Numbered from the stretch's first letter, positions 21,659 through 64,000 are shown. The stretch: 64,000 bases of DNA from Methanonatronarchaeales archaeon (GCA_018263395.1 JAANXF010000004.1:3840-67839); one strand, 5' to 3'. The notes: a model not told the origin generated them from the sequence alone. Numbers and translations: made by a program.

Positions 21659-22302
21659 GTTTCCCGGTTCGCGGGGAGCCACTGGATAGAACTCCGCCCC
21701 GAGTGGGTAAGGTGGTCAGGTCCGCGTACGTAGGGTCCCCAGTACCCGGATTCTGGACGTCCCCCTCGGCGAGGACGCGGGGAATCCGGCGGCGTGTGTG
21801 GATGAGGCGGTTGAGCCTGAACCGCGTGAATCCTCGACGTCGCTGAAGGTTCGGAACCGCGCCCCGGGTACAGTGTTCACCGAAGGAGATTTGTCAGTGC
21901 CCCCGTTGGTATGCCTCGCCCTTCTCCACTGGGCCATGGGGGAGCCTTTCACAGACCCCTATATAGTGACTGTTGGAGATGTGGAGTGATTTTTCATGGA
22001 GGAAGGAACCCTTCAAACATGCCTTTTTCTCTCCCGATCTGGTGGAGAGATAGGTCCCCTCAGGAAGGACCGTTTCACCAGTCGCCTCCGATAATCGTTA
22101 GGACACTCCTTCACTCACGGGAAGAGTCATAAAATATCGCCAAGAACCACTATAGCCACGGAGAGCGTCGACCCTACGCCCGGTTTTCGTTATGGTGGTA
22201 TCCCGGCAGGCAGGTGGGCAGACAGGTGGTAGCCTGTGTACCCTGCTTGTGCACCTTACTCCCCGTCGCGGCCTCACGCTCCTGCGATTCAGGCCCGCGC
22301 GG

Positions 22303-48808: not shown

Positions 48809-50616
48809 TCCACGGTAACGCTCTTTGCGAGGTTCCTCGGCCTGTCTATCGGTCTGCCCAGCTCCCTCGCCACGTGGTACGCGAAAAGCTGCATTACGAC
48901 GGTGGACAGGAGCGGGGAGAGCCGGTGGTCGGCGTCAGGCACCCTCAGCACCTCCTCGCAGAACCTCCCGGTGTCCTCGTCCGACTCGCTGGCCACGGCG
49001 ATTACGGGGCCGTCCCGGGCCTCCACCTCCTTGGCGCTGGAAAGCGTCTTTTCGTAAAGCGGGGACGAGGTCAGCACGGCCACCACCGGCGTCCGCCGGG
49101 TTATCAGGGCGAGTGGTCCGTGCTTGAGTTCGCCGGCGGGGTAGCCCTCTGAGTGCACGTAGCTGATTTCCTTCATCTTGAGGGCCCCCTCCATCGCGAC
49201 GGGGTAGTCCACTCCCCTGCCGATGAAGAAGAAGGCCTCGCTGTCCACGTAGCTCTCCGCGACGCTCTCCACGTCTTCCACCTCGTCGAGAACCCGCTGC
49301 ACCTTGGACGGCATGTCACGCAGCTCGGCGATGAGGTGTTTCGCTTCGGAACGCGGCAGGTCACCGGACTCCCTGCCGAGGGCGATCGCGAGCATCGCCA
49401 CGCAGGCCAGCTGATTCGTGAACGTCTTGGAGGCAGCCACGCCGATTTCGGGACCGCTCCGCAGGTACACGACGTCGTCCGTCATCCGGGTGGCGGTAGA
49501 GCCGACGACGTTGGTGAGAACGAGCACCGCGTGGCCCTCGTCACCCGCCCTCTCTATCGCCCTCAGGGTATCCGCGGTCTCCCCGCTCTGGGTGATTCCG
49601 ACGGTGAGAATGTTTTTCCCGGAGACGGGTCCGTAGCGGTACTCGCTTGCGTGGCGAGCGTTGACGGGCAGGCCCGTAAACTCGCCCGTCAGCCTTGCCC
49701 CGTACAGGGCGGCGTGGTAGGAGGTTCCACACCCCACGAACTCCACTCCTTCGAGTACCTCCATCCCGTCACGGTCCAGCGCCACGCCCGGGTCGACCTC
49801 CCCCATCAATTCGTCGAGCCGTCCACCCATACACTCGGCGAGGGCGCGGGGCTGCTCGTGAATCTCCTTGAGCATGTAGTGCTCGTAGCCGCCCCTCTCC
49901 GCCTCCTCGGCGTCCCACTCGACCACCTCCTCCTCTCTCTCCACCGGTTCGCCGTCGAAGTCCCTCACCTCCACGGAGTCCCTTTTGATCACAGCCATCT
50001 CGCCGTCGAGCAGGTACTTTACCCGCCTCGTGTACGGAAGGATAGCGGGCACGTCGCTCGCGACGAAATTCGCGTCATCGGAGAGCCCTATCACCAGGGG
50101 GCTGCCGTTCCTGGCCGCCACGAGCCCATCCTCGCCGACTGCACAGATGGCGAAGGAGCCCTCCAGCTCCGATACCGTCTCCCGCAGCGCGTGCTCGAGT
50201 GAACCGTCCAGCCGCTCCTCCAGCAGGTGGGGAACCACCTCGGTATCCGTGTAAGAGCTGAAGACGTGCCCCCTCTCCTCGAGCCCCTCCCTGAGCTCCG
50301 CGTAGTTCTCCACGATTCCGTTGTGGACGACCGCCAGGTCCCCGTCGCAGTCCGTGTGCGGATGGGCGTTTCCCTCCGAGGGTTTTCCGTGCGTGGCCCA
50401 CCTCGTGTGTCCCACGCCGGCCCTTCCCTCCATCCCGGAGAGCCCGAGGGCCTCGTCCAGGGTCTCCATCCTGCCGACGCCCTTGGAGACGCTCAGGCTC
50501 CCTGCGTACGTGGCCAGACCTGCCGAGTCGTAGCCCCGGTACTCCAGCCGCTTCAGGGCATCCACGAGAACAGGCGCCACCTCCGAGCCGGAGACGGCTC
50601 CCACTATGCCGCACAT
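48805..50616 (-). CDS. glmS: Glutamine-fructose-6-phosphate aminotransferase
   Basis: MCGIVG, LEYRGYDSAG, GHTRWATHG, QSGETADT, ELKHGP, RPRNLAKSVTVE. Confidence 0.98.
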   Translation of the reverse strand: MCGIVGAVSGSEVAPVLVDALKRLEYRGYDSAGLATYAGSLSVSKGVGRMETLDEALGLSGMEGRAGVGHTRWATHGKPSEGNAHPHTDCDGDLAVVHNGIVENYAELREGLEERGHVFSSYTDTEVVPHLLEERLDGSLEHALRETVSELEGSFAICAVGEDGLVAARNGSPLVIGLSDDANFVASDVPAILPYTRRVKYLLDGEMAVIKRDSVEVRDFDGEPVEREEEVVEWDAEEAERGGYEHYMLKEIHEQPRALAECMGGRLDELMGEVDPGVALDRDGMEVLEGVEFVGCGTSYHAALYGARLTGEFTGLPVNARHASEYRYGPVSGKNILTVGITQSGETADTLRAIERAGDEGHAVLVLTNVVGSTATRMTDDVVYLRSGPEIGVAASKTFTNQLACVAMLAIALGRESGDLPRSEAKHLIAELRDMPSKVQRVLDEVEDVESVAESYVDSEAFFFIGRGVDYPVAMEGALKMKEISYVHSEGYPAGELKHGPLALITRRTPVVAVLTSSPLYEKTLSSAKEVEARDGPVIAVASESDEDTGRFCEEVLRVPDADHRLSPLLSTVVMQLFAYHVARELGRPIDRPRNLAKSVTVE

Positions 50617-51837
50617 CTATCCCGAGAGCCTCGACCCGGAGTCGAGGTCGTCCCTGACCACCGCTCCGGGAAGCACTTCACACTCCCTTCCGACCACTCT
50701 ACCGGGGGACATCGTCACGTTTCCGCCTATCCTGGAACGGTCCGCGATCATCCCGCCTATGCCCTCTATCCTGTGGAGCCTCTCCTTGACCTCCACCCTC
50801 GAGGCGCCCGCCTCCGAGACGAAGTGGCTGCCCAGCCTCACCCCTTCACCCACCACGCAGCCCTCCACGCTCGACGAAGACCCCACCCTTACCCCCCTCA
50901 TCAGCACCGAGTTCCCGACGACCGCCCCCGGACCCACCGACACGTTTTCGCCAACGCTCGTCGAGGGCATGATTGCCGCACCCGGGCCGATGTCGCTGTT
51001 CCTGCCGACGACGCACGGCCCCGCGACGTAGGCACCGCTCCGGATCACCGTTCCCTCACCGACGGAGACGGGGCCCCTCACGACCGCGCCCTCCTCCACC
51101 CTCCCCTCCATCGCGAAGTCGAGGTTGAACGCCTCCTCTCCTTCGAGGACGACGCCGTTCACCCTCACGAGGTCCCAGGGATATACCGCGTCCATCCAGG
51201 TAGCGTCGGTCTCAACGACCCTGACCTCCCTGCCGACGTCCACGAGTTTCTGAATCGAGGCGGTTATCTCGTACTCACCCCGGACGCTCAGCTCCGTGGA
51301 GTCGATGGCGTCGAACACCTCGTCGGTGAACGCGTAGACCCCCAGGTTTACCTCGCGCGTACCCCCCCGGCTGGGCTTCTCCTCCACCCCCGTCAGGAGG
51401 CCCCCCTCCGAGGCAATCGCCCCGTAACCGTCGTCGACCTCCGCCCGCTTCACCAGGACGCCGTTACCCCCTTCGACGGAGTCGATCAGGTCCCTGACGG
51501 CGTCGGGGTGAACGAGGTTGTCCCCGTTGATCACGAGGAAGCGGTCGCCGACCTCCTCCCTGACGCTCTCCACGGCGTGGGCGGTACCCAGCTGCTCCTC
51601 CTGGACGACGTACGTTATGTCCACGTCCCACTCGTCGCCGTCCTCGAAGTACGACTGGACCTTCTCCCTCCTGTAGCCGACCACCATCACCAGGTCGTCC
51701 ACGCCCATGTCGGAGAGCGCCCTGACCTTGTACTCCAGGATGGGCCTGTTCGCCACCGGAAGCATAACCTTCGGCCTCGTCTCGGTGAACGGCCTGAGCC
51801 TGGAGCCCTCGCCCGCGGCGAGTATAACCGCCTTCAT
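50617..51837 (-). CDS. GlmU-like sugar-1-phosphate nucleotidyl/acetyltransferase (paralog 1)
   Basis: LAAGEGSRLRP.T..RPK, LGTAHA, left-handed beta-helix hexapeptides. Confidence 0.92.
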   Translation of the reverse strand: MKAVILAAGEGSRLRPFTETRPKVMLPVANRPILEYKVRALSDMGVDDLVMVVGYRREKVQSYFEDGDEWDVDITYVVQEEQLGTAHAVESVREEVGDRFLVINGDNLVHPDAVRDLIDSVEGGNGVLVKRAEVDDGYGAIASEGGLLTGVEEKPSRGGTREVNLGVYAFTDEVFDAIDSTELSVRGEYEITASIQKLVDVGREVRVVETDATWMDAVYPWDLVRVNGVVLEGEEAFNLDFAMEGRVEEGAVVRGPVSVGEGTVIRSGAYVAGPCVVGRNSDIGPGAAIMPSTSVGENVSVGPGAVVGNSVLMRGVRVGSSSSVEGCVVGEGVRLGSHFVSEAGASRVEVKERLHRIEGIGGMIADRSRIGGNVTMSPGRVVGRECEVLPGAVVRDDLDSGSRLSG

Positions 51838-53018
51838 AGCCTAGTTCCTCTTACGTATTCCCCGGGCTCCGTATAAAGCCCCTCTCCGATGACTGTCCCC
51901 GGGTTCAGCGAGGTGTTCACCCCGGTCTTCGCGTCGTCGCCGAGAACCGCGCCGAGCTTCCTCCTGCCCGTGTCCACGAGCTCCCCCTTCACCTCGACCC
52001 GGACCCTCCCGCCGTCATGCCTGAGGTTCGCGGTCACCGTACCCGCCCCGAGGTTGCACCTCCTCCCGAGCACGCTGTCGCCCACGTAGCTCTGGTGCCC
52101 CACGCTCGCCCCCCCCATCAGTATGCTGTTCTTGACCTCCACCCCGTTCCCGACCCTTGCCCCGCCCCCGATGGAGGTGTAAGGCCTGACGTGGCAGTTC
52201 GGCCCGACGACGCAGTCCCCCCCTATCGCGACCGGCCCCTCGACGTATGCGCCGCTCCGTATCACCGTCCCGCCTCCGACCGAGACCTCTCCCCTCAGCG
52301 TGGCGCCGTCCTCCACCTCCCCCTCCACGGAGGGCTCCAGTCCCTCCAGGGCGCGGGCGTTCGCCTCCAGCAGGTCCCAGGGGTAACCCACGTCGAGCCA
52401 GAACCCCCCGACCTCGACGGCCTCCACCCCGTCCAGCCTCCTCACCGCGTCCGTGAGCTCCACCTCGCCTCGCTCGGACGGCTCCACGCTCTCGAGTGCG
52501 TCGAATACCTCCGGCGTGAACCTGTAGATACCCGCGTTTACCAGGTTCGAGGGAGGGGATGCCGATTTCTCCACGAGGTCGTGAACCGTGCCGTCCCCGA
52601 CCACCACGGAGCCGTAGTGCTCCGGGTCGGCCACCTCCTTCACCGCCACGGCGTTGCCTCCCCTCCCTGCGAGTTCGCGAATCGGTTCCCCCTCCACGAA
52701 CAGGTCGCCGTTTACGACGAGGAAATCGTCGTCGACCTCGTGCCTGGCCGTCCTCACCGCCTCCCCGGTCCCCCTATCCCCGGACTGCTCCACGTACGAG
52801 AGACGCACGCCCCGGAACTCCTCCCCGAGGCTACGGCGGACCGCGTCACCCATGTACTCCACGACGAGGACGGCCTCCTCCACCCCGGCAGAGACCAGCC
52901 CCTCCAGCAGGTGCTGCACCAGGGAGACGTTTGCCACCGGAAAGAGCGGCTTGGGGCGGCCGTCCGTAAGGGGACGCATCCGGGTGCCCCTGCCGGCGGC
53001 CAGCACTACTGCCTTCAT
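51834..53018 (-). CDS. glmU: GlmU-like bifunctional sugar-1-phosphate nucleotidyl/acetyltransferase (paralog 2)
   Basis: MKAVVLAAGRGTRMRPLT..PKP, SERGEVELTD, SYVGDSVLG, GAGTVTANLR, DTGRRKLGA. Confidence 0.92.
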   Translation of the reverse strand: MKAVVLAAGRGTRMRPLTDGRPKPLFPVANVSLVQHLLEGLVSAGVEEAVLVVEYMGDAVRRSLGEEFRGVRLSYVEQSGDRGTGEAVRTARHEVDDDFLVVNGDLFVEGEPIRELAGRGGNAVAVKEVADPEHYGSVVVGDGTVHDLVEKSASPPSNLVNAGIYRFTPEVFDALESVEPSERGEVELTDAVRRLDGVEAVEVGGFWLDVGYPWDLLEANARALEGLEPSVEGEVEDGATLRGEVSVGGGTVIRSGAYVEGPVAIGGDCVVGPNCHVRPYTSIGGGARVGNGVEVKNSILMGGASVGHQSYVGDSVLGRRCNLGAGTVTANLRHDGGRVRVEVKGELVDTGRRKLGAVLGDDAKTGVNTSLNPGTVIGEGLYTEPGEYVRGTRL

Positions 53019-53198
53019 CTCCCCGATATTGTACGTCGCCACCGATAACACTTTTACCCGCGACACTGCTAGGGAGGTTAACCGGTCCGCTCCCCCGGCC
53101 CTTCAACCCCCTCCTTCGCCGGTCGGCGGTGAACCGGTCGACACGTAACGTAGCAAAGTATTATATACGGGCATCCCTATTCTCCAGTTTGAGAGGGG

Positions 53199-53993
53199 AT
53201 GGCCGACGTGGAGCTCAAGAGGCTGCAGGACCTATACGATAACGGGGTTCTGACCGACGAGGAGTACCAGCGGCTCAGGGAGAGGGCCGAAGAGGTGCCC
53301 GAGAGGGAGGTCCTGTCGACCGGCATGCACCTCCTCGACACGAGGCTCAACGGGGGAATCCTCAGCGGCTCCCTGGTTGCGCTTATCGCCGACCCCCTCG
53401 CCATGCCGGGGATGTTTCTCTACCACTTCTGCGAATCGAGGAGGACCGTCTACTTCACAACCGACAGGAAGGCCGAATACGTACGGCAGGACATCGCCTC
53501 GTCCAACTTCGAACCGAAAGAGCTCCAGTTCGTGGACGTGTACAGCCACCACTACCTCGACGACCGCGGTGACCTCCGTACCGGGGGAGATTACGAGGAC
53601 CGCAGGACCCTCGATTTCGTAATGGACCGCCTCAAAAGGATGAGGGTCGAGGAGGAGGGGATAAACATCGTATTCGACAGCTTCTCGTTTTTCGAAAACC
53701 TCGAGCTGCAGACGCGACAGGTACACCTCCTGCTGAACTACATCTACGAGACAAGCAAGGACGTAAACGGCCTCACCTACCTGCTGAGCAACTCCTCGAC
53801 GGAGGATTTCAACAACGCGATGGAGAGCACCTGCGACGTCGTCATGCGCGCAGAGGTCGATGAGGCGGAGAAAGCCATGAAGAAAGTGCTCTACATCCCA
53901 AAGCTCAGGGGCGGCACGCCCCCCGACACCGCGGTCAAGTACGCCGTGGAATCCGACACCGGGATAAAGGTGGACACCAGCAGGCTCGTTTAG
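53199..53993 (+). CDS. SHOCT-fused RecA/KaiC-like (RAD55-type) ATPase, degenerate P-loop
   Basis: N-terminal ELKRLQDLYDNGVLTDEEYQRLR; LSTGMHLLDTRLNGGI..GSLVAL, IVFDSFS, PKLRGG; Walker A replaced by ADPLAMPG. Confidence 0.75.
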   Translation: MADVELKRLQDLYDNGVLTDEEYQRLRERAEEVPEREVLSTGMHLLDTRLNGGILSGSLVALIADPLAMPGMFLYHFCESRRTVYFTTDRKAEYVRQDIASSNFEPKELQFVDVYSHHYLDDRGDLRTGGDYEDRRTLDFVMDRLKRMRVEEEGINIVFDSFSFFENLELQTRQVHLLLNYIYETSKDVNGLTYLLSNSSTEDFNNAMESTCDVVMRAEVDEAEKAMKKVLYIPKLRGGTPPDTAVKYAVESDTGIKVDTSRLV

Positions 53994-54137
53994 GGCCCCG
54001 AGGAACCGGACCGTGGGAGCGGCCTTAAACTTCGCATTGTATCACTTTTTTGTGCCTCTGAAGCGAGAGAGACGGGGATTCACAAGGTGTGGCGGAAGAG
54101 GCATCAAGCGGGAGGCCCTTTTGATTAACCTCCGGGG

Positions 54138-54399
54138 ATGGGGATACGCTACCACAGCTATCGCCTTAGCGGTACTCATAGGCGCGATAGCCACTATCCC
54201 GACGGCCGTGGCCTCCGAGATAGGAGACGTCCGTGGCGAGGTTTAGACCGAGCTGGGGGGGCGTATCCGGACAGACCGTCGTGCTCAAAAAAAACAAGTC
54301 GGCAACTCCTACGTCGAGTACGCCCCGGAGAAGACGGGTGACAGCGGTACGTTCTCGTTCCCTGTAGAGGAACGGAGTAGCTACCTTGTAACGTTCTAA
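54138..54399 (+). pseudogene. Decayed secreted-protein gene
   Basis: Signal-peptide-like YATTAIALAVLIGAIATIPTAVA, in-frame TAG at 54244-46, frame changes at G/A runs; restored reading GEV*TELGGVSGQTVVLK..GDSGTFSF...YLVTF resembles a small beta-sandwich. Confidence 0.5.
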
Positions 54400-54725
54400 C
54401 GTTCGTATGAGACAGCCTGCCCTACTTTAAACACGTGACGTTTAGAGGAACCGATACTGAAGTAAATTTCCAGACAAAGTACGTCGTCATAGACGGCGGG
54501 ACAGGGGGCAGGGTTACCCTCGAAGGGAAGCCCGTAGCGGGGGCGGATGTCACCGTTTTCCGTAGCGGCGAGGTAGTAGACACCGGGCTTATCCTCCATG
54601 AACTCCTCGATTAGCCGCGTCTTCCCGACCCGGCGCCTGCCGTAGACCGGGACGAAACCTCCCGCTGCGTAGGCTTTTTCCAGTGCCTCCATCTCGCTCT
54701 CCCGGTCGAGGAACTTCATACCCAC
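54396..54725 (-). pseudogene. Truncated archaeal AAA ATPase (ATPase_2/DUF234-type)
   Basis: MKFLDRESE..L, VYGRRRVGKTRL then loss of similarity after ~55 aa; full-length family members are several hundred aa. Confidence 0.75.
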
Positions 54726-54845
54726 CCATCAACATCAAACAATTTAAAAGTTGTCAAATATAGAATAAACAACTCAAGCTTGTTATCCGGTAACAATTCG
54801 GCTTCGAGACCGGCTCCTTAAACGCTTTATCGCGTTTCAACCGAT

Positions 54846-54932
54846 GTGGTCGTGGCCAAAACGGAGACAGAGAGCCCGTTCGTGATAACCTCTTTCTTTA
54901 CCGACGAGGTTAAAAGCGGGACACCTGTCTGA
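54846..54932 (+). pseudogene. 3' remnant of the toxin gene that is intact at 60170-60469
   Basis: VVVAKTETESPFVITSFFTDEVKSGTPV* vs LVVVKVEVDSPFVITSFFTDGIKSGAPV*; DNA aligns without gaps to 60383-60469. Confidence 0.85.
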
Positions 54933-55276
54933 GCCGAGGATGATGGAGGCGATTTCACCGGGAAGACTTCTCTCGATGTCACGCCACAACCGGTTCCGGT
55001 AGCTCTTAGGTCGTTTCAAAGCCCTTGAAAGTAGGGAAATCCGCCTCCGCGTTCAGGCGAGAAAGGTTGACGGGTTTCATCTTCTCAGCCCTTTTGAAAC
55101 GGGCTCTCTGATTGGGCAGGACTCACTTTGGAAAGAGGTACATTCACAGATGCTGATCTGGACGACGGAACTCTCGTGACCGTCAAACTCATCGACACCG
55201 AGAGCGAGCAGATAGTCTTCACCAGCGAGGCCACGGCGAAGTAACGAAGAACTCAGACTCAAGGTATCAAAAAAAC

Positions 55277-55354
55277 AAAAACGCAACCCCTTCTATTACT
55301 CACGACGGGACGGTTGGGGCTGCCGCCGCGTGTGGGGGACCGGTGCGCCGGTGA
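55277..55354 (+). repeat. TA-array spacer copy A (5' part)
   Basis: aaaacgcaacccc..ttactcacgacgggacggt..gccgc..gtgggggaccggtgcgccggtg. Confidence 0.75.
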
Positions 55355-55441
55355 TGAGTCTGTCTCGAGAGTCGAAAAGGGTCGGGAGGATGGGCGCAAC
55401 GAACCTCTCTCGCCTCATCGTTCGGGTGGTGATTCCTATCT

Positions 55442-55849
55442 TCAGGGCTTGCCGTTGATGAGGGGTGGGGCGGTTCCTGGGTGGGCCGGTTTAGTAGGAG
55501 ACCTGCTCAGCCCTGCTTCTTCCGGGTCAGGAAAAGTTTCCGGGGCAGGTGGTCCTGGGAGGGGCAGAGTGAGTGAGTTTTTCGCGACGAGCGATGCGAG
55601 GTCGTACGCAAGGGTCCTGTTGTCCGGAAAGTACAGGACTTTCAGGTTCCCGTACTCCTCTTCGTCCAAGAAGTCGGAGTCGTTGGTGGGGAGGACGTAG
55701 TTGTTCTCAGCAGCGTATCGCGCTATCTCTGCGTCGGTCGTTCCGGTGCCGAGTTCGTCTCTTACGTGGACTCCGACGTTTCCCTCTTTTTCGAGGTATC
55801 TGGTCACCTGTGGATCGACGTTCTCGTCGCAAAGCACGCGGTACGCCAT
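55442..55849 (-). CDS. DUF5615 PIN-like toxin, probably frameshifted near its C-terminus
   Basis: LCDENV, D.EI..YA, TNDSDF; removing one A from the run at 55578-55582 gives ..PSQDHLPRKLFLT..* ending 55507. Confidence 0.8.
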   Translation of the reverse strand: MAYRVLCDENVDPQVTRYLEKEGNVGVHVRDELGTGTTDAEIARYAAENNYVLPTNDSDFLDEEEYGNLKVLYFPDNRTLAYDLASLVAKNSLTLPLPGPPAPETFPDPEEAGLSRSPTKPAHPGTAPPLINGKP

Positions 55850-56140
55850 TTACGCGAGGTCTTCCAGCGTCTTGGCTCCCTTCTCTAGGGCTTCTTCCTC
55901 GCGGCGCCGTATCTTCTCCCTCACCTCGGCCATCTCGTCAGGGTGGTCGTGGTAGTAACTGAGTGCCCTGTAGACGTCGGCTATGTCGAGGTCGTAGCGA
56001 TCCGCCACCGTCTTTGCGGACAGGCCTCGCCCCTCTACGAGTTCCGCCACCTGCCGGACGGTGATGCGTCTCCCCTCAAGCCGGGGCTCGCCCCCCATCA
56101 CCTCTTCGCTTTTCACGATCCTCACTACTTTTTGGGGCAT
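55850..56140 (-). CDS. DUF433 antitoxin
   Basis: VMGGEPRLEGRRITV, A..YDL...DVYRALSYY. Confidence 0.9.
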   Translation of the reverse strand: MPQKVVRIVKSEEVMGGEPRLEGRRITVRQVAELVEGRGLSAKTVADRYDLDIADVYRALSYYHDHPDEMAEVREKIRRREEEALEKGAKTLEDLA

Positions 56141-56143
56141 TAT

Positions 56144-56269
56144 CTAGAAGTAGGGCGCTCTTTCCCATAACTCTTCCTCAGAAGTAAGAGGACGGTTGAT
56201 GAATGGCCTCAGCTTCGAAGGGGTGAGGTCGGTGAAGGGGAAGGGTATAAGGACAAATTTGCCCTTCAT
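56144..56269 (-). pseudogene. Truncated MazF/PemK toxin
   Basis: MKGKFVLIPFPFTDLTPSKLRP = PemK N-terminal motif; similarity lost after ~22 aa; ATG overlaps antitoxin stop (ATGA). Confidence 0.75.
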
Positions 56270-56452
56270 CCGGGCCGTGCCTTGATGTCCTCTTCGGAGT
56301 AGAGCTCGGGCTCCTCGCTCAGGAAGTCGTGGAGGGACTCCTCCGATGGTTTCGTGAGTTCCCCTCTCCTCGAGAAGTTCGTCCACCTTGAGGTTGAGCT
56401 CGGCGAGGCCCTTTCGGATTTCCCTTAGCTCCGACTCGATACCCGCCATCAT
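56266..56452 (-). pseudogene. Frameshifted antitoxin partner of MazF
   Basis: Removing one base from the run at 56361-64 gives MAGIESELREIRKGLAELNLKVDELLEERELTKPSEESLHDFLSEEPELYSEEDIKARPG*. Confidence 0.65.
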
Positions 56453-56555
56453 TTACCCTCTTCTTTAAACATGTCCTTAAGCTTTCCAGATGGCGGTTCA
56501 CCGCATTAAAAATAGCCAGCGACAAGCTGATAACCGACACAGACCTCCGGATACA

Positions 56556-56749
56556 GTAAACCCGGAAAAACGAAACCCTTTTTCTTTTTTTAGTCACTCA
56601 TGACGGGACGGTGGAGGGCTGTCGCCCTGGGGAAACCGGTGCGGCGGTGCTGTTTAAGGCGCTGGGGACCCGGGTTCTAACCGTCGTGGGTAGCCTGTCC
56701 GTGTGGTTCGATGGGTGGTGGAGGGACTTCTTCCTGGAGGTCTCGTGAG
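56556..56749 (+). repeat. TA-array spacer copy B (near full length)
   Basis: gtaaa..gaaaaacgaaaccc-T tract-actcatgacgggacggt..gtcgccct..accggtgcggcggtgctgtttaaggcgctgggga..gtgggtagcctgtccgtgtggttcga. Confidence 0.9.
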
Positions 56750-56858
56750 GCGGTTAAGCCCCCATCGCAGCGGGCGGCGGCCAGGCGAAACTACGGTTAA
56801 AAACGATTTAGTGTATCTCCACACTAAGCTATATCTTGGTCGGGCGCGATTGTGGCGT

Positions 56859-57101
56859 ATGTCGGAGGTACGGGTGGTGGGCGAGGGCAAGGTTTCGGGC
56901 AACCAGGCCTCCATACCCGCCCAGGTCAGGAACCGGCTCGACATCCGGGACGGCGACGTCGTGAGGTGGAAGGTGGTGGACGGGGAGCTGGAGGTGGAGG
57001 TAGTGCACCGTCGCCGGGGCGTCTTCGAGGACTTCCGGCCGGGTGAGTCCGAGGAAGAGGTCGACAGCGTGGATGAGCACGACTCCTTCGGTCTGGGTTA
57101 G
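56859..57101 (+). CDS. AbrB/MazE/SpoVT antitoxin (VapB)
   Basis: KVSGNQASIPAQVRNRLDIRDGDVVRW. Confidence 0.88.
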   Translation: MSEVRVVGEGKVSGNQASIPAQVRNRLDIRDGDVVRWKVVDGELEVEVVHRRRGVFEDFRPGESEEEVDSVDEHDSFGLG

Positions 57102-57102
57102 A

Positions 57103-57534
57103 ATGGCGCAATCTGCCACGGTGGACACGACGGTTCTTTACGCCGCGGGAAACAGACGCGCCACGTTCCACGAAGATGCCCTGGAAATCGTGAAGGCCGC
57201 GGACCGTGGAAACCTGCCCGTGCTGCGCATACCCGACGCCGTCCTGCTGGAGACGATGAACGGGCTGCACAGGACCGTCGGGCACGGGAAGGCCGTGGAC
57301 GTGATGAAGCGTCTCCAGGAGGGGGACGGTTTCGGGATTGAGAGGGGCTCCCTGGCCGTACTGACTGCTGGGATCCAGCTCTTCCAAGAAATAGAGAGGC
57401 TCTCCCTCGGGGACGCCCTGGTAGTCGCGGACGCGAGGCACAACGAGGTAGAGTACCTCTACAGTTTCGACGGCGACTTCGACGGAATCGACGGCATAAC
57501 CCGTTTAAACACGCCGGATAACCCTTACCGATGA
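57103..57534 (+). CDS. VapC PIN-domain toxin
   Basis: VDTTVL, LLET, LSLGDALVVA, LYSFDGDFD. Confidence 0.9.
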   Translation: MAQSATVDTTVLYAAGNRRATFHEDALEIVKAADRGNLPVLRIPDAVLLETMNGLHRTVGHGKAVDVMKRLQEGDGFGIERGSLAVLTAGIQLFQEIERLSLGDALVVADARHNEVEYLYSFDGDFDGIDGITRLNTPDNPYR

Positions 57535-57544
57535 TGCGGTAGCC

Positions 57545-57694
57545 GTCGCCCTGTGGGGACGGATGCGCCGGTGCTGTTTGAGGCCCTTGGTGACCCGATT
57601 TCTAACTGTCGCGGGTAGCCCGTCCGTGTGGTTCGACGGGGGGTGGAGGGGGGCTTCCCGGAGGTCGTTGGCGAGGGGAGTGAGGGGCTTCTTC
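57545..57694 (+). repeat. TA-array spacer copy C (3' part)
   Basis: gtcgccctgtggggacggatgcgccggtgctgtttgagg..gggtagcccgtccgtgtggttcgacgg..gaggtcgttggcgagggga..gggcttcttc. Confidence 0.88.
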
Positions 57695-57822
57695 GCGAAG
57701 ATGCTTGCCGATTGATGCGGCCCTGACCACTTATCGCCGGGTTGAGAACCCAGTTAGGCCGATTAAAATTCTCTGAAACGGGTGGGGAAATCTTCTTAAC
57801 GACGTGGAAGGTAGTTAACGTG

Positions 57823-58110
57823 ATGCCTCTGAGCGTGGAGGACGTCGCCAGCGCGACGGGCGAGTCCGAGGAGTCGATTCTGCACAAGGGCCTTGGGTCC
57901 TATCTGGACAGGGAGCTCAGGGAGGCCGGTGTCCGGATAAACGAGTTAAAGAAGAGGTACGGGGTGGAGCGTCCCTCCGAGCTCGAGGAAAAAATCGAGG
58001 GGGGGGGTTCGGTCGATGAGCACCCGGCCTGGGAAGAGCTGATAGAGTGGGAGAACCTGGAGAAGAGAATCAGTCGCCTGAAGGAGCTCTCGGAGTCTAC
58101 GGAGCCCTGA
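57823..58110 (+). CDS. Putative antitoxin (partner of DUF6516/TumE-like toxin)
   Basis: L.KRYGV..PSELEEKI..G...EHPAWEELIEWENL pattern; overlaps the toxin gene. Confidence 0.65.
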   Translation: MPLSVEDVASATGESEESILHKGLGSYLDRELREAGVRINELKKRYGVERPSELEEKIEGGGSVDEHPAWEELIEWENLEKRISRLKELSESTEP

Positions 58111-58447
58111 AGAGAAGGGCACTTGAGGCATTCCCGGGCATCGTGTCCAAGGCAGTCGTGGAGAGGGCTCCCGGAGACACCCCGAGGAACCTCCGTATCT
58201 TCCTTAATGATGGAAGTTTTCTGGACGCGTGGGTTTCAACCTCTTCCGGAAAGTACTCATTTCACTGGCAGTCAGAAGACGGCGTCGTACGGTTCGAAAC
58301 GCGCCGCACCACGACGTGGAGACGTTTCCCCACCACGTCCACATCGACGACGAGGTGGAGGCAAGCCCGTTAAAAGGAAACTTCGTGGAGGACTTAGAGC
58401 AGGTCATGAGTCATCTGGAGAAGAGAAGGACACGAGAATCAAAGTAA
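58090..58447 (+). pseudogene. Frameshifted DUF6516/TumE-like toxin (start approximate)
   Basis: LRIFLNDGSFLDAW..GKYSFHWQ..VVRF then, one base missing at ~58297, NAPHH..TFPHHVH..; restores the R.DNAPHH..FPHH.H motif. Confidence 0.75.
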
Positions 58448-58642
58448 AACATCGGTAATGTGGCCGGGAGAAACGAAACCCCTTCTTTTTTTTTAATTAC
58501 TCATGACGGGGCGGTGAGAGGTGTCGCCCTATGGGGACCGGGGCGCCGGTGCTGTTTAGAGGAACCGGTGACCGGGTTCTGGCCGGGTCCTAACCGTCAT
58601 GGGTAAACTGTCCGTCTGGTTCGACGGGTGGTGAAAGGGACT
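58444..58642 (+). repeat. TA-array spacer copy D (full length)
   Basis: gtaaaacatcggtaat..gaaacgaaacccc-T tract-aattactcatgacggggcggt..gtcgccct..accggggcgccggtgctgttta..atgggtaaactgtccgtctggttcga. Confidence 0.9.
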
Positions 58643-58767
58643 GGATGTGTCGGTGCGTGGAGACGTGATTCGAGGAATTTGAGCTGTCGGGCCGGCTGCG
58701 AGGTGGTAGGGGGAGGCGTATTTATTGTTTGCCGTGTCAAGTTTGGGTTAGAGCGGTGCCGGGGTCG

Positions 58768-59079
58768 ATGATGCACGAAGAGGTGTTCGAGGAATTCGTC
58801 GAGGAGGCGAAGGCCGAGCTCGGCGAGGGCCTCGAGAGACTGGTCCTCTACGGCTCCGTGGGGAGGGGAGAGGCGACTCCTCACTCGGACATAGACATCT
58901 ACGCCGTCGTGCGGGACGAGGAGGAGAAGGAGAGGCTGCTGGACCTCGCCTACGAGGTCGGTATCCTGAGGCACGGTACGCCGATAATGCTCGTCGTCAG
59001 GACCGGGGAGGAGGAGGCCGATGCGGGCGACACATCCTTCCGGAGAGAGGTGGAACGTACCGGGAAGGCACATGTCTGA
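58768..59079 (+). CDS. Minimal nucleotidyltransferase (MNT) antitoxin
   Basis: LYGSVGRGEATPHSDIDI. Confidence 0.9.
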   Translation: MMHEEVFEEFVEEAKAELGEGLERLVLYGSVGRGEATPHSDIDIYAVVRDEEEKERLLDLAYEVGILRHGTPIMLVVRTGEEEADAGDTSFRREVERTGKAHV

Positions 59080-59461
59080 GATCAAGGACCTGTTCGAGCT
59101 CAGCGAGCAGGCGCTCGACGACGCCGTCCTGCTGAGCGGGAGAGGTTCGTTGAGGGCCGCTCAGAACAGGATTTACTACGCCCTGTTCTACGCGGCGAAG
59201 GCGGCTCTGTTGTCACTCGGCGAGGAGCCGGTGACCCACAGAGGCGTCGTGGCCCTTTTCGGTCAAAAGGTCGTTAAGAGCGGTCTGGCGAGCAGGGAGG
59301 ACGGGAGGTTCCTCGCCGATGAACAGAGGAAAAGATACGAGGCGGACTACGAGCCAGAAACCGCCTTCGAACCCGAAGAGATAGAGACATCCATAGAGAG
59401 GGTGCAGGCATTTATCGGAGGAATGGAGGACCTCGTTAATGAAGGGAAAGGAGACACGTAA
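59072..59461 (+). CDS. HEPN-domain (UPF0332-like) toxin
   Basis: NRIYYALFYAAKAALL..TH.GV..F, R..ADY. Confidence 0.88.
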   Translation: MSEIKDLFELSEQALDDAVLLSGRGSLRAAQNRIYYALFYAAKAALLSLGEEPVTHRGVVALFGQKVVKSGLASREDGRFLADEQRKRYEADYEPETAFEPEEIETSIERVQAFIGGMEDLVNEGKGDT

Positions 59462-59505
59462 ACTCGAAGCGGGGACTTCCACTCGAAGAAGGAGCGTGAA
59501 GCAGG

Positions 59506-59598
59506 GTAAAACATCGGTAATATGACTGGGAAAAAACCTTATCCCTTTCTTTTTTTTTTAAATTACTCACGACATGACGGGACGGTGAGGGGTGTCGC
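59506..59598 (+). repeat. TA-array spacer copy E (5' half)
   Basis: gtaaaacatcggtaat..gggaaaaa..ccc-T tract-aattactca..tgacgggacggtgaggggtgtcgc. Confidence 0.88.
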
Positions 59599-59689
59599 TG
59601 GAGGATTGACGACGTGCTCACGGGCCTCGACGCCTGCACGAGGCCAACGCGTACCCCGGGAGGCGTAGGCGGGCCATCAGGGAGGAGAG

Positions 59690-59742
59690 AAGTCGGTTCA
59701 CCGACTTACTGGAGTCGCCGTTAACGGCGTGGATTTTTTTTT
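59690..59742 (+). terminator. Hairpin + palindrome + T9 tract
   Basis: AAGTCGG-TTCA-CCGACTT (59690-707), CGCCGTTAACGGCG (59716-729), T9 (59734-742). Confidence 0.5.
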
Positions 59743-59922
59743 GTCGAGGGAGGGGTTTAGGGTTGCGTTCAGGTCTTTTTTGGTGTGGGGGTTCGAGGAG
59801 GGAGTGTGGGCGGTCTTTCACCGTTTTATGACGGAGTGCTTACCGATAGGTGGGGGGGCCGAGGAGGCCGGTATGTTGATTTGTGAGGGGGCTTGGGGAT
59901 ACGGGATTCAGGACGCAAGTGA

Positions 59923-60035
59923 TGTTTAAGGCGCTGGGGACTCAAGTCTTAATTGTTATGGGCAGCCTATCCGTCTGGTTCGACGAAGAAGGGGACTTTC
60001 TGGAGGTCGTGAGCGAGGGGAGGAAGGGCTTCTTC
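59923..60035 (+). repeat. Spacer copy F = promoter and 5' end of the intact DUF2283 gene
   Basis: tgtttaaggcgctgggga..atgggcagcctatccgtctggttcga..ctggaggtcgtgagcgaggggaggaagggcttcttc; TTTAAG 33 nt before ATG. Confidence 0.9.
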
Positions 60036-60170
60036 CGCGACCTCGGGAACGGCGTTTTCGAGAGGGTGGATGAAGAAGGCAACACGATAGGCTTCGCTCT
60101 TCTAAACGTCAAGGAGAGAAAGGAGAGGGACATCCCGTTCGATGCCAAGTTTGAGAAGGCGGTTTCTTAG
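59958..60170 (+). CDS. DUF2283 antitoxin-like protein
   Basis: LSVWFDEEGDFLEV, D..G..IGF..LN. Confidence 0.85.
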   Translation: MGSLSVWFDEEGDFLEVVSEGRKGFFRDLGNGVFERVDEEGNTIGFALLNVKERKERDIPFDAKFEKAVS

Positions 60171-60469
60171 TGCAGGTCCTGAGGGATTTCAGCGGGAGAG
60201 ACATCCGTTTGACCGATGAGAGGCGGGAACACATCGAGCGCCGGCCAGAGATGGAAGGCCAGGTTCGGAGAATCGAGGAAACCTTGGTACAGCCTGACGA
60301 GGTTAGGAAAAGCGATCAAGACCCATCCGTCTACCTGTACCACAAGAGGTATGGGGAAACCCCTGTAACTGAGAAGTACCTTCTGGTCGTGGTCAAAGTG
60401 GAGGTAGATAGCCCGTTCGTGATAACCTCTTTCTTCACAGACGGGATTAAAAGCGGGGCACCCGTCTAA
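60170..60469 (+). CDS. Putative RNase toxin (PBECR/DUF4258-like), GTG start
   Basis: IRLTDER.EHI...P, I.ETL..PDEV, LLVVVK, FVITSF; coupled to DUF2283. Confidence 0.75.
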   Translation: MQVLRDFSGRDIRLTDERREHIERRPEMEGQVRRIEETLVQPDEVRKSDQDPSVYLYHKRYGETPVTEKYLLVVVKVEVDSPFVITSFFTDGIKSGAPV

Positions 60470-60512
60470 ATCTCGCCCTAGTGAGGTCGGTCAGGCCCGA
60501 GGCATCGTACAT

Positions 60513-60917
60513 TCAGGTTTTCGCCAGCAACTGCTCATTGAACCATTTGAGGGTTTCCCTGTAATCGAGGAACTCGGTTATCACTCGGGCCTCGTAGCTC
60601 GCCCTGTCCACGTCGCCCTCGTAAACCAGCCGCCCCGTCTTCACGACCTCGTACCTCAGCTGGGGCGGCGAGTGGTTCAGGGCCTTTACGTCGAACTCGA
60701 ATCCGTAGCCGAATTTTTTCTCCAGCTCCCTCGCGAGCTCCATGCAGAGCTTCATCGCGGCGTAGCTGTCCGGCTCCCCTGAGAGCAGCGCGGCCACGTC
60801 CACGTCCTCGAAGCTTCCGCGAAGGGAGGAGCCGTAAACGTAGCCCAGCTCGACCTCGTCGAACCCGGAGAGCACCTCGCCAATCTGCTGCAGCTCCTCC
60901 TCCGAGAGCCCGTCCAT
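60513..60917 (-). CDS. MNT nucleotidyltransferase (MntA-like), orphan
   Basis: YVYGS....EDVDVA, DVK.LN.SPP.LRYEVV..G. Confidence 0.85.
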   Translation of the reverse strand: MDGLSEEELQQIGEVLSGFDEVELGYVYGSSLRGSFEDVDVAALLSGEPDSYAAMKLCMELARELEKKFGYGFEFDVKALNHSPPQLRYEVVKTGRLVYEGDVDRASYEARVITEFLDYRETLKWFNEQLLAKT

Positions 60918-60986
60918 GAACCCAAGTGGTTCAGAACCGTCTTAGTTCTTACCTTTCCCCTCAGACTCGCCCGGAAAACGGCAGTG

Positions 60987-61958
60987 CTACAGCCTCTCCA
61001 TCTCCTCGAAGGGAACGAGGCCGCTGATTTCCTCGGTGGGTGCGTCTATCCCCCTCTCGTTGAGCGCAGCGGCCGTGTTTATACCGGCGCTCATCGCCAC
61101 GCCGAAACGGTCCATGCCGACGGGGATGCCCAGGACGGACCGGTTCGGGAGGCCCACGTCCATCACCCCCCCAATTCCCAGGGCCTCGAGCTCCTCGACG
61201 ACCCGCACGACCTCCTCCTGCGCCGAGCGGGGGATGACCCTGAGGTTCCCGAGCAACCTCCCGTCCCCCTCCATCGCCTCGCCGACCGAGGTCATGCCGG
61301 TCTCCATGAAGACCTCCACGGGGTCGACCGACGAGCCTTCGTAGCTTATGGCGTCGGTGAACCGGCTGAACTCGCCTCCGGAAACCTCCACGACCCCGCC
61401 GAACCTCGGCGTTATAGGTACCCCCCTCTTCAGCAGCACGCCGTCCATGGTCATCGAGCAGAGGGTGGCGATTCCCACCCTCCCCGCCGACACCGGTCTG
61501 CCCGCGAGCAGCTCCCCCTCCCTCCTGACGGAGACGTGGGGACTCACCGCCATCCCCGACTCGAAGACCTCCCGAATCGTGGAGAGCGCCTCGTCCTCGT
61601 CCTCCTCCCCCACGAAGGTCGTGTTGACCACCGCCTCGCCCCTGCCCGTGGAGGGGTCGAAGCGCGAGCTGTATATTTTCTCCTCGACCCTGCTTATCAC
61701 GAAACCGATTCTCCGGCTCACGAGGCCGCGTGAGAGCTCCTCGACGCCCCTCTCCGTGATAGTGCGGCCGGCGTACCCGTGCTTCTCGGTCAGGCCCCTC
61801 TCGTCCATTATCCGGAAGTAGTACCTGACCGCCCGCTCGCCTATGGTGACCCCGGCCCTCCTCAGTGAGTCGGCCACCCGCTTGGCGCCGAGGGGTTCCT
61901 CGGAGTCCCTCAGTATGCGGAGTATCTCGATAATTTTTCGCTGATTCCCCTCGGCCAC
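60987..61958 (-). CDS. nrpR: NrpR-like regulator (wHTH + one DUF128 domain)
   Basis: EILRIL..S.EPLGA, ERAVRYY, GR.IT..G, TLCSMT.DGVL..GVP, PRFGG, GINTAA; likely GTG start 61958. Confidence 0.85.
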   Translation of the reverse strand: MAEGNQRKIIEILRILRDSEEPLGAKRVADSLRRAGVTIGERAVRYYFRIMDERGLTEKHGYAGRTITERGVEELSRGLVSRRIGFVISRVEEKIYSSRFDPSTGRGEAVVNTTFVGEEDEDEALSTIREVFESGMAVSPHVSVRREGELLAGRPVSAGRVGIATLCSMTMDGVLLKRGVPITPRFGGVVEVSGGEFSRFTDAISYEGSSVDPVEVFMETGMTSVGEAMEGDGRLLGNLRVIPRSAQEEVVRVVEELEALGIGGVMDVGLPNRSVLGIPVGMDRFGVAMSAGINTAAALNERGIDAPTEEISGLVPFEEMERL

Positions 61959-62041
61959 CGGCAATAGGTTGCCTCCAGAAGCCCTTAAATAGTTCCTCTG
62001 CCGCCTCCGGAAACGTTTAAGGGACTGAACCTCTTTTAGAG

Positions 62042-62902
62042 GTGGTTTCAATGCGGCTGCCGGACCTGATGAAGCTCGACGAGAGACTGCTGATCGCGCC
62101 GCCACTGCTCCTCATCCTCTTGGCCGTCTCGCTTCTCGGGTACGGATACGTCACCACAGGCACCCCTCTCGAACTGGGAATGGACTTCAGGGGCGGGGTC
62201 GCGGTGACCGTCACCACGGAGGAGGCCCCGGAACAGGTGGCCGCAGGTTTCGAGGAGTTCGGCGTGGTGGGTGTACGGGATCTCCCCGACGGAGCGCTGA
62301 TACAGTTCGGGCCGATTGACGACGCCCTGAAGGAGGAGCTGGAGAGCTCGGTCTCCGCCCGCTACGATACGTACCAGATAACCGCCGTCAGCGAGGTCTT
62401 TGGCTCCGAGCTGCAGGGTCAGGCACTCACGGCCTCAGTTATCGCGTTCCTGGCCATGGCAGGTATGGTTCTACTCCTTTTCAGAAGGTTGTTCCCCGCG
62501 GGAACCATCGTCGTGGCTGCCCTGGGAGACATCCTCGTGGCGGCCGGATTCGTGAGGCTTTCCGGACTGCAGCTCTCCCTCGGAACGGTGGCCGCTCTCC
62601 TCATGCTCATCGGTTACTCCGTGGACAGCAACGTCCTGCTGACCAGCAGGATGCTGCGGGGGAGGGGGACCGTCAGCAAGAGGTTCAACGGTGCGTTCCG
62701 AACCGGCGCGACGATGGCGGTCACGACCCTGTCGGCGATTCTGGTGCTGGCCACGGTGTCCTACGTTGCGGGCATGACCATCCTGTTCGAAATCACCGCC
62801 GTCCTGTTCGCCGGACTGGTGGCCGACGTGTTAAACACGTGGTTCCTTAATGGCTCGGTTCTCAGGAGCATTCTCGTCAGGGAAGGAGTGGAGGTCAGTT
62901 GA
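62042..62902 (+). CDS. secF: Protein translocase subunit SecF
   Basis: LGMDFRGG, FGSELQ, LMLIGYSVDSNVLLT, multiple TMs. Confidence 0.93.
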   Translation: MVSMRLPDLMKLDERLLIAPPLLLILLAVSLLGYGYVTTGTPLELGMDFRGGVAVTVTTEEAPEQVAAGFEEFGVVGVRDLPDGALIQFGPIDDALKEELESSVSARYDTYQITAVSEVFGSELQGQALTASVIAFLAMAGMVLLLFRRLFPAGTIVVAALGDILVAAGFVRLSGLQLSLGTVAALLMLIGYSVDSNVLLTSRMLRGRGTVSKRFNGAFRTGATMAVTTLSAILVLATVSYVAGMTILFEITAVLFAGLVADVLNTWFLNGSVLRSILVREGVEVS

Positions 62903-64000
62903 AGGGGCTAAGACCCGCGCTGGAGGACAGGCGCGTCCTCCTCCTGCTCGCAGTGGTGGCCGTCTCACTCGTCCTGATAGGGCCGACGTACAGCGACGGC
63001 GAGGTGGAGACGAACCTTCGCTACGGGCTGGAGCTACAGGGCGGGGTGTGGATGCAGCTACAGGTCAAAGGCGCCACGGTCACGGGTTCCGTCGACGTGC
63101 CGGGGCTCCTCCAGGGGAGGGCCTCGGAGGTGCTGGACAGGAACGTAACCGTCAGCGGCCGCGCCGGGGTCTACGAGCTGAGGTTCGAAGACGCGTCAAA
63201 CGAGTCCCTTGAGGCGCTTCGAAGGTTCGGTGAGGCGTCGCTCTCCGACGGAGCGGTGCGTCTAAACGTCAGCGAGACGGCACTCGTATCCGACTACCTC
63301 GGGGACCGGTTGGGCGGAGAGGTGAGGGCCGTCTCCGGCACCAGGGGCTTCTCGTACGAGGTGCGGACCGAGGTCACGCGGGAGGAGGCCGAGGCGGCGT
63401 TCAGGGACGCCGGGGGCGAGCTCTCGGAGTTCGAGCGCGGCGTATCCGACAGGACCCTGGAGACCACGCGGGAGGTTATCGAAAAGAAGGTCAACGCAAT
63501 CGGTCTGAGAGATATCTCGGTCAGGACCGCCGGAAGCAGGTACATCCTGGTCGACATGGCGGGAAACATCACGCTCGACAGGGGACGGGAGGTGGTCTCC
63601 AGGCCGGGCCGCTTCGAGCTCCGGGTCGAAACCGAGGCCGGCGAGGGCGTAAACGAGTCGATCCACGCACTCTGGGGCGACGAGATACTCGGCGTCGATT
63701 TCCCGACCCAGGACAGGGACGACGCGTGGGGGGTTCCCTTCACCCTCTCAGAGCAGGGAGGGGAGGATCTGCGCAGCGCAGTTCTCGAGGCGGGTGCGGC
63801 TGAGCCTGACTCCGGGAAAAACATCCTGATGCTGCTCGACGACGAGGTGGTCTACAGCGCACCGATAGCCACCGACCTGAAGGAGGACTTCAGGCGGGGA
63901 ACCGTGAGGTCGATAAGGGCCAACACCGGCTCTGGCGACGAGGGGCAAGAGGCCGCAAAGAACCTCGAGATTCACCTGAAGGTCGGTGCGCTTCCGGTGG
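62899..64000 (+). CDS. secD: Protein translocase subunit SecD (partial, runs off window end)
   Basis: TTG overlapping secF stop; TNLRYGLELQGG, IEKKVNAIGL, L.IHLKVGALP; read manually (absent from ORF track because it has no stop in the window). Confidence 0.92.
   Translation, partial: MKGLRPALEDRRVLLLLAVVAVSLVLIGPTYSDGEVETNLRYGLELQGGVWMQLQVKGATVTGSVDVPGLLQGRASEVLDRNVTVSGRAGVYELRFEDASNESLEALRRFGEASLSDGAVRLNVSETALVSDYLGDRLGGEVRAVSGTRGFSYEVRTEVTREEAEAAFRDAGGELSEFERGVSDRTLETTREVIEKKVNAIGLRDISVRTAGSRYILVDMAGNITLDRGREVVSRPGRFELRVETEAGEGVNESIHALWGDEILGVDFPTQDRDDAWGVPFTLSEQGGEDLRSAVLEAGAAEPDSGKNILMLLDDEVVYSAPIATDLKEDFRRGTVRSIRANTGSGDEGQEAAKNLEIHLKVGALPV

Follow-up and report, generated by a model that had tools for sequence, protein, structure and literature searches.

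The DNA considered here is a stretch of 64,000 nucleotides (the window) from a Methanonatronarchaeales archaeon (GCA_018263395.1, JAANXF010000004.1), corresponding to C17:3840-67839 in a metagenome-assembled genome of 22 contigs and 1.17 Mb that is 78% complete. Near one end of the window lies an array of small toxin-antitoxin (TA) cassettes separated by copies of a degenerate direct repeat, and the repeat is a piece of a neighbouring gene: it covers the intergenic stretch upstream of the DUF2283 antitoxin gene that terminates the array, with the TATA-like box and start codon, and extends 10-27 codons into that gene. The whole array is bracketed by pieces of one DUF2283-PBECR2 operon, a stub on the left and the live operon on the right (Table 1). 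It is located inside a low-GC island (52-63% GC vs 65-70% in the flanks) bordered by a KaiC-like/DUF7125 gene on one side and an NrpR regulator gene on the other. The assembly is the sole genome of its own family in the searched collection, where the class is represented by four other genomes; no close relative of the lineage was found in the genome or metagenome collections searched, and in a synteny check the flanking NrpR gene had no match in the class relatives.

Assignment of the gene content by Pfam supports five pairs, DUF433/DUF5615, AbrB-type/PIN, DUF7342/TumE, MNT/HEPN and DUF2283/PBECR2, which as adjacent small genes of recognised families can be classed from their sequences as type II/VII TA modules. 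An earlier interpretation made from the DNA alone (the sequence-only reading) had counted six pairs and an orphan MNT packed at this locus; Pfam bears out the orphan and five of the pairs, and the sixth, an 'antitoxin/MazF' pair at 56144-56452, finds no family support. The open reading frame (ORF) at that place, of 102 aa, gave no Pfam match even at E<=5 and has no paralogue in the genome. The minus-strand block between copies A and B looks nested, given that this ORF ends exactly at the start of the DUF433 cassette. The genes follow a gradient of decay along the array. Leftward are the PBECR2 stub, in which 54847-54930 is 86% identical to 60384-60467 (the last 28 codons of the intact gene) with a matching stop codon position, the truncated DUF5615 toxin, with a Pfam match restricted to profile positions 2-61 of 110, and the 102-aa ORF; rightward, the PIN, HEPN and PBECR2 genes look intact. 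Close homologues of the PIN toxin were sought as a sign of recent cassette transfer, and the best is 65% identical.

Table 1. Features of the array and of the other loci discussed. Plain numbers are window positions; a C-number denotes a contig of the same assembly.
Feature	Position	Strand	Remarks
ATPase_2 gene remnant, archaeal	54396-54725	-	PF01637 positions 1-54 of 225; match confined to the first ~50 residues; left fringe of island
PBECR2 toxin gene 3' stub (last 28 codons + stop)	54847-54932	+	left bracket of array
Repeat copy A	55277-55370	+	5' half of DUF2283 upstream region only; identity 72-73% with B and D (E 6e-8 to 2e-7)
DUF5615/PIN_10 toxin	55442-55849	-	Pfam; in inverted cassette; C-terminus aberrant
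DUF433 antitoxin	55850-56140	-	Pfam; in inverted cassette
ORF of 102 aa without family	56144-56452	-	abuts DUF433 start
Repeat copy B, full	56561-56749	+	T-run, CTCATGACGGGACGGTG, TGTTTAAGG box, GTG start, dead head 'GSLSVWFDGWW...'
AbrB-type MazE_antitoxin	56859-57101	+	Pfam; apparently intact; own TATA-like box ~30 nt upstream
PIN/VapC toxin	57103-57534	+	Pfam; apparently intact
Repeat copy C	57542-57698	+	3' part, without first ~99 nt; frameshifted; reaches DUF2283 codon 27, furthest of the copies
DUF7342 antitoxin	57823-58110	+	Pfam
TumE (=DUF6516) toxin	58047-58373, 58229-58447	+	Pfam; frameshifted into two ORFs
Repeat copy D, full	58424-58642	+	5' extension in common with E; dead head 'MGKLSVWFDGW*'
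MNT	58768-59079	+	Pfam; apparently intact
HEPN	59075-59461	+	Pfam; apparently intact
Repeat copy E, 5' half	59487-59598	+	78% identical to D, E 2e-17
Insert splitting copy E, ~300 nt	59599-59889	+	between GTCGC and TGGGGA; T9 run 59733-59741
Repeat copy E, 3' half	59890/59914-60040	+	TGTTTAAGG box at 59924; continues into intact DUF2283 gene, ATG 59958
DUF2283 antitoxin, intact	59958-60170	+	Pfam; live anchor operon
PBECR2 toxin, intact	60170-60469	+	Pfam; live anchor operon
Orphan MNT (Polbeta nucleotidyltransferase)	60513-60917	-	Pfam; right fringe of island
DpnI locus	C7:12624-15550		intact DpnI, PIN cassette + small ORF, then 100-codon DpnI C-terminal stub
QueD locus	C20:6876-9563		intact QueD (PTPS), 649-aa XPD/Rad3-like helicase gene, QueD N-terminal stub of 131 nt (86%)
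Glycosyltransferase (GT)-like locus	start of C17		GT-like 3' stub, PIN_2 cassette, stub again; adjoins DUF433/DUF5615 pair
Tail-anchor locus	C18:33600-40500 (locus L021 2600-9500)		five ~126-nt blocks; two DUF7342/TumE pairs, three PIN pairs
Copies of a miniature inverted-repeat transposable element (MITE)	C6:36115-36237, C9:85679-85801, C13:8020-8130, C14:40378-40486		
MITE copies, continued	C15:58-167, C15:6295-6401, C22:28145-28254, C22:37840-37947, C22:41063-41172		
Contig-end family 1	C3, C7, C8, C9, C10, C11, C22		
Contig-end family 2	C4, C9, C11, C12, C13, C18, C20, C21		

The repeat family was found by self-comparison of positions 54000-61500, with pairwise BLAST E-values calculated within this 7.5-kb region. 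It comprises five direct copies, all on the plus strand, with pairwise identities of 72-86% and E-values from 1e-7 to 3e-33. The homologous blocks that the sequence-only reading had noticed at five junctions are thus real, with their starts corrected to 55277, 56561, 57542, 58424 and 59487+59890; they had been described as non-coding, which does not hold for their 3' third, where the DUF2283 reading frame starts (GSLSVWFD...). No further copy exists in the remainder of the 1.17-Mb assembly or in 60 related genomes, and pattern scans of JGI metagenome contigs and GTDB species genomes gave one chance match only, in DNA of 33% GC. A dispersed MITE, the plain explanation that the sequence-only reading had set against its own, was rejected on these grounds, the repeat being confined to the locus and having no terminal inverted repeats.

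The identity of the repeat rests on the true start of the DUF2283 gene. Thirty homologues (60-78% identical) all start with MG.LSVWFDEEGDFLE, with GSLSVWFD invariant, and the start is therefore placed at the ATG at 59958. Gene callers begin the gene at an ATG within the TGTTTAAGG box (window 59922-60170), which gives a protein of 82 aa; the homologue-based start lies 12 codons downstream, for a protein of 70 aa, and suggests a leaderless or very short-leader mRNA. The TGTTTAAGG motif, ~30 nt upstream of the start, is the sole upstream element common to DUF2283 loci of distant lineages and is taken for this reason as the TATA-like box of the operon; it is preceded upstream by a T-run and then by the block CTCATGACGGGRCGGTG. 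The start region reads VGSLSVWFD in copy B, AGSPSVWFD in copy C and MGKLSVWFD in copy D, after which all three break down, the dead heads terminating in stops or frameshifts after 10-31 codons. Past each dead head there are 110-125 nt of unrelated DNA with a TATA-like box of its own, followed by the next antitoxin gene.

The limits of the copies are ragged. Their 5' starts vary by 0, ~40 and ~99 nt and their 3' ends by up to 42 nt, the latter falling, in DUF2283 coordinates, at ~59998 (D), ~60013 (B) and 60040 (C); beyond these points the alignments of B, C and D are no better than shuffles. The longest stretch common to all full copies is ~8-12 nt. Copy C, in which the homology runs furthest into the gene, aligns locally to 59988-60040 with z=16. 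The 5' extension of copy D provides the last 8 codons and the stop of TumE, and homology between D and E deeper into the TumE gene is not significant (73/500 shuffles scored as well). No family, repeat or Rfam match was found for the insert that splits copy E.

The same layout, in which cassettes stand between diverged fragments of a neighbouring gene, recurs with other sequences at at least four loci of the genome (Table 1), which were recognised in a whole-assembly self-comparison for other local direct repeats flanking small inserts. At the DpnI locus the repeat spans 359 nt and is 75% identical; the open C-terminal winged-helix stub might be expressed as a small DNA-binding protein. The cargo at the QueD locus is a helicase and not a TA pair. 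The block repeated on C18 codes for a C-terminal membrane anchor (...PENGATFLVAALAGLLVLGGVYAWRRG), and the two of its five copies that retain open frames of ~100 codons could be real small tail-anchored proteins. A further array was found in a contig of a Halobacteriales metagenome-assembled genome, JBDGQL010000234.1, chosen only for its DUF2283 homologue: four heads of a GT4 glycosyltransferase gene, 77-94% identical, begin ~40 nt before the ATG and vary in their 3' limits. A helix-turn-helix (HTH)-MNT pair and a DUF433 pair are among the small cassettes between them, and two dead copies have a derived stop codon in common. As these arrays have entirely different anchors, one sequence-specific enzyme cannot explain them all. 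Two other sets of repeats were not counted as examples: those of a Natrialbaceae locus (L035), which look like paralogous small HTH genes, and those of locus L048, which lie beside an insertion sequence (IS). On the Halobacteriales contig, a GT4 head copy is also broken, at 7096-7170 of the locus (L036), by a ~80-nt element with perfect terminal inverted repeats, TATACTGTCGGACAG, which looks like an unrelated MITE.

The sequence-only reading had preferred an integron-like system, in which the repeat is the site of an unlinked site-specific recombinase. Small, largely TA cassettes parted by one repeat family are indeed found in chromosomal integrons and in clusters of attC sites lacking integron-integrases (CALINs), both of which exist in Archaea (PMC9668308). 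Moreover, the 64-kb window contains a 9-mer, CATCGGTAA (CATCGGTAA/ACATCGGT), at exactly three sites, all of them junction edges. This 9-mer is nevertheless present at chance rate genome-wide (9 found vs 8.9 expected), two of its three window sites are homologous copies, and it was not treated as a site. Taking as the mark of an attC site an R'' (RYYYAAC) and an R' (GTTRRRY) on one strand, 55-141 nt apart, we found 3 GTTRRRY and 0 RYYYAAC on the plus strand of 54700-61000 and the mirror image on the minus strand; one of the two words is missing per strand, so no core pair can form, and no such pair stands at an aligned position in the repeat copies. The fold z-scores (DNA/RNA) are inconsistent (B -1.2, D -3.4, C +1.2, A -0.1), and copy C is without one hairpin arm altogether. 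The cassette limits are imprecise, one block is inverted, and TATA-like boxes precede each plus-strand antitoxin gene, so that the cassettes bring their own promoters. Neither the window nor contig C17 gave a PF00589 match, and hence no integron integrase; in the assembly, 78% complete, the sole tyrosine recombinase is encoded at the edge of contig C6 by an ORF of 414 aa (PF00589 match C6:784-1284), and no serine recombinase was found. With the unrelated anchors of the other arrays, these features make an integron-like system highly improbable. The sequence-only reading was right that the spacer shows no convincing attC fold and that the window holds no integrase; its dedicated attC-like spacer acted on by a trans-acting recombinase gives way to a decayed DUF2283 promoter and 5' end with ragged limits. 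Repeated recombination at one place, as opposed to random accretion, stands, its direction by a dedicated enzyme does not, and homologous recombination, the other of the two mechanisms then offered, fits.

A target-gene fragment, an element and an intact gene at one end form the classical scar of integrase insertion into gene ends. Archaeal examples of such insertion are documented (PMC4158269). The array could accordingly be read as the remains of larger integrative elements, whose integrase had its att site in the DUF2283 head and which carried a replacement head, integrated serially and later lost everything except the TA genes; the recombinase on C6 would be in keeping with this. Between the heads, however, there is no trace of any non-TA element gene, the units are uniform (~0.8-1.3 kb), the ragged limits enclose no identical core longer than ~12 nt, and each locus would require its own integrase, which renders this origin improbable. 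Of the marks of integrase-mediated tandem island accretion, an identical att core at every junction is absent, and no integrase gene lies in the island.

It could also be supposed that the repeat has been put to use several times over as a functional module, serving as a promoter/operator or as a structured leader RNA and kept by selection before each plus-strand operon. Four copies do lie 110-125 nt upstream of plus-strand operons, and copy D has a good fold, in which a 13-bp stem is formed between the region past the T-run and the start codon. Such a role is very improbable in view of the state of the copies: the TATA-like box has decayed in C (TGTTTGAGG) and D (TGTTTAGAGG), C is without the entire 5' half, the fold is not significant in A, B and C, copy A points towards the 3' end of a gene on the minus strand, and each cassette has its own TATA-like box nearer its start codon. 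In addition, a search of Rfam with 50000-64000 gave no match at E<=1.

The way in which the copies differ from the live genes bears on their origin. In codons 2-9 of the DUF2283 head, the synonymous:non-synonymous differences from copy E are 4:0 in B, 3:1 in C and 2:2 in D; given ~22% synonymous sites, the chance of 4:0 in B is ~0.002, on very small counts. For the DpnI stub against the intact gene, the ratio of non-synonymous to synonymous substitution rates (dN/dS) is 0.15 with dS 1.45, and for the C18 stubs it is 0.17-0.37 with dS 0.57-0.72. These values indicate that stubs and intact genes probably acquired most of their divergence under purifying selection, when each was still functional in a lineage of its own. 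Since the differences are mostly synonymous, the copies appear to have been assembled from diverged alleles and not made locally and then left to decay.

With a confidence a little above even, we favour a homology-anchored, recombinase-independent stacking of cassettes, retained because TA addiction blocks their loop-out. An incoming TA cassette would arrive on DNA that also bears a homologue of the DUF2283 head, in the form of a divergent allele of this locus or of a circle that had looped out from an array of similar kind, and would enter by a single crossover, an unequal crossover or a homology-facilitated illegitimate join (with homology on one side only) with the resident head. Each event would leave a truncated head, a cassette with its own promoter, and a head joined to the working DUF2283-PBECR2 operon; a single crossover with a circle on which a 3'-truncated head precedes the cassette yields just this arrangement. 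Repetition would build the array, growing at its live (right) end, a direction which the decay gradient fits. Dead heads may later have been copied or homogenised among themselves. Circles formed by loop-out between flanking heads would carry the limits of their own cassette, which would account for cassettes with individual limits and for mosaic head interiors. Recombination between direct repeats normally deletes inserts; addictive TA inserts would resist such loss and accumulate, which is offered as the reason why the surviving cargo is mostly TA. It has been shown experimentally that TA pairs placed between repeats suppress deletions (PMC6354349).

Several observations weigh against this stacking model. 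Identities of 72-86% between copies make a poor substrate for homologous recombination, so present-day recombination may be rare and the array perhaps a fossil. Among 18 other DUF2283 loci none has repeated heads, and three haloarchaeal AbrB/PIN loci gained a cassette without flanking duplication, so this layout does not characterise such cassettes in general. The head comparison has, as said, very small codon counts, and the PBECR2 stub departs from the synonymous bias, with proportions of synonymous (pS) and non-synonymous (pN) differences of 0.15 and 0.16, respectively. Copies B, C and D have in common a derived frame-breaking change after WFD (GGGKGGTGRAGGG for GAAGAAGGGG) where the live state, DEEGD, is invariant in the DUF2283 family; the segment past WFD thus comes from one dead copy or was homogenised. 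The three copies are not each an independent truncation of the live gene, and the model needs gene conversion or duplication of dead heads. Finally, eight or nine contigs from runs SRR10589500-508 show one cassette order with at most 1 single-nucleotide difference, and no circle, deletion variant or other cassette order was found among them. The sequence-only reading had held that a fixed arrangement in relatives would speak against its model; the order is identical in the nine runs, which come from the same population and are uninformative on strain-level polymorphism.

The common change in B, C and D, which looks like descent from one dead copy, the near equality of pS and pN in the left-edge stub and the fixity in nine runs would all suit an origin entirely in situ, by which the DUF2283-PBECR2 unit or its head was tandemly duplicated, the copies decayed neutrally and TA cassettes replaced their bodies by illegitimate recombination, with no exchange between genomes and no cassette mobility. 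The synonymous bias of the heads and the low dN/dS of the stubs elsewhere, at dS up to 1.45, are a misfit with neutral decay of local duplicates, and four separate replacements would be required, all starting within 42 nt of one gene; we consider this origin unlikely.

The only polymorphism seen at the locus affects copy E, which in run SRR10589502 (contig L027) carries a MITE at 59563/59564; the MITE is missing from the window and from the other runs and is a live insertion polymorphism. This ~110-nt element targets a TA dinucleotide, is bounded by terminal inverted repeats of 13 nt (TATAGTGATTGTC) and has at least nine dispersed copies in two subfamilies (Table 1). Its terminal repeat TATAGTGATTGTC was not found in the array. 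Elsewhere in the window, two matches with 2 mismatches lie in inverted orientation 180 nt apart (21962-21974 on the plus and 22142-22154 on the minus strand); the pair may be a degenerate MITE copy, the count of such matches being within chance expectation. Two families of ~128-nt AT-rich sequences end many contigs, with tips (...CGTCAATAACTATA) that resemble the MITE ends; each family probably represents one end of an IS present in many copies, at which the assembly breaks, and this putative IS could mobilise the MITE. As a separate feature of the assembly, a 6.6-kb stretch of C13:906-7502 is 99.86% identical, in opposite orientation, to C5:4289-10885; this points either to a large duplication of recent date or to a duplicate introduced in assembly or binning.

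The stacking model may be carried further, to a recombinase-free archaeal counterpart of integrons, in which a TA cassette with a stub of a host gene is the minimal mobile unit. Such units would loop out through recombination of their flanking stubs, pass between cells and be re-inserted at the same gene by the homologous recombination of the host, the addictive pair punishing loss of the insert; the array in the window, the four other loci and the Halobacteriales GT4 array would be their products. We hold this extension to be possible but doubtful.

The movement and accumulation of TA modules are poorly explained outside integrons, transposons and plasmids, and the present locus offers a readable record of the process, written with the same grammar and other anchor genes elsewhere in the genome and in another archaeal order. 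Should the stubs prove to be both scars and substrates of general recombination, islands can grow and shuffle without a dedicated enzyme, and addiction would account for the frequency of TA pairs among the retained cargo. A full-text literature search found no description of stub-punctuated archaeal TA arrays, a negative of little weight. In gene calling the anchor gene is given a wrong start and the stubs are overlooked, so that such arrays are annotated as unrelated hypothetical ORFs.

The array can be compared with several known systems. In-situ xenologous displacement and homology-facilitated illegitimate recombination, reportedly described by Omelchenko et al. in 2003 and by de Vries and Wackernagel in 2002, share with it the entry through one homologous anchor and the resident fragment left beside the incoming copy; similarly to displaced genes, stub and intact gene differ mainly at synonymous sites. 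Xenologous displacements are single replacements, whereas here the event would be iterated at one anchor, with retention biased to addictive TA cassettes. Campbell-type insertion-duplication and tandem accretion, as in islands at tRNA genes and in cis-mobilisable and integrative and conjugative elements (CIME/ICE), likewise place direct copies of a target gene on both sides of the inserts with one intact copy at the end, and reuse of the same target yields a tandem array. The present array differs in having no integrase or element genes, a cargo of 1-2 genes, and repeats of 95-360 nt that are 72-94% identical and ragged in place of short identical cores. With integrons and CALINs it has in common compact, TA-rich arrays of small cassettes, one repeat family and serial capture at one locus. 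Archaeal integrons, as described by Ghaly et al. (2022, PMC9668308), possess canonical attC sites together with IntI and attI; the array, unlike them, has no attC core or fold and no IntI or attI, and shows imprecise limits, cassettes with their own promoters and an inverted block. Its repeat is moreover homologous to the head of a host gene, and other arrays of the type have other repeats.

The closest resemblance is to the loci of polymorphic toxins (CdiA-CT/CdiI, Rhs, MafB), which have arrays of orphan toxin/immunity cassettes (Zhang et al. 2012, PMC3482391). There as here, unrelated cassettes of a toxin and its protector stand in a row, each after a fragment of the main gene, and copies A-D are such fragments, DUF2283 operon heads that precede displaced cassettes. 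In both, the fragments are read as scars and substrates of homologous recombination, with no dedicated recombinase. The systems differ in what is duplicated and exchanged: in polymorphic toxin arrays the fragment lies upstream of a C-terminal toxin tip with its immunity gene behind it, and the tips of a large secreted toxin are swapped in frame, whereas in the present array the fragment is a promoter with the 5' head of an antitoxin gene, and complete operons with their own promoters are placed behind it without any new fusion. Here, moreover, the intact gene closes the row on its 3' side, and the array belongs to an archaeon, with a cargo of type II/VII TA systems. Taken together, the nearest described logic is that of the polymorphic toxin orphan-cassette array combined with insertion-duplication of the Campbell type.

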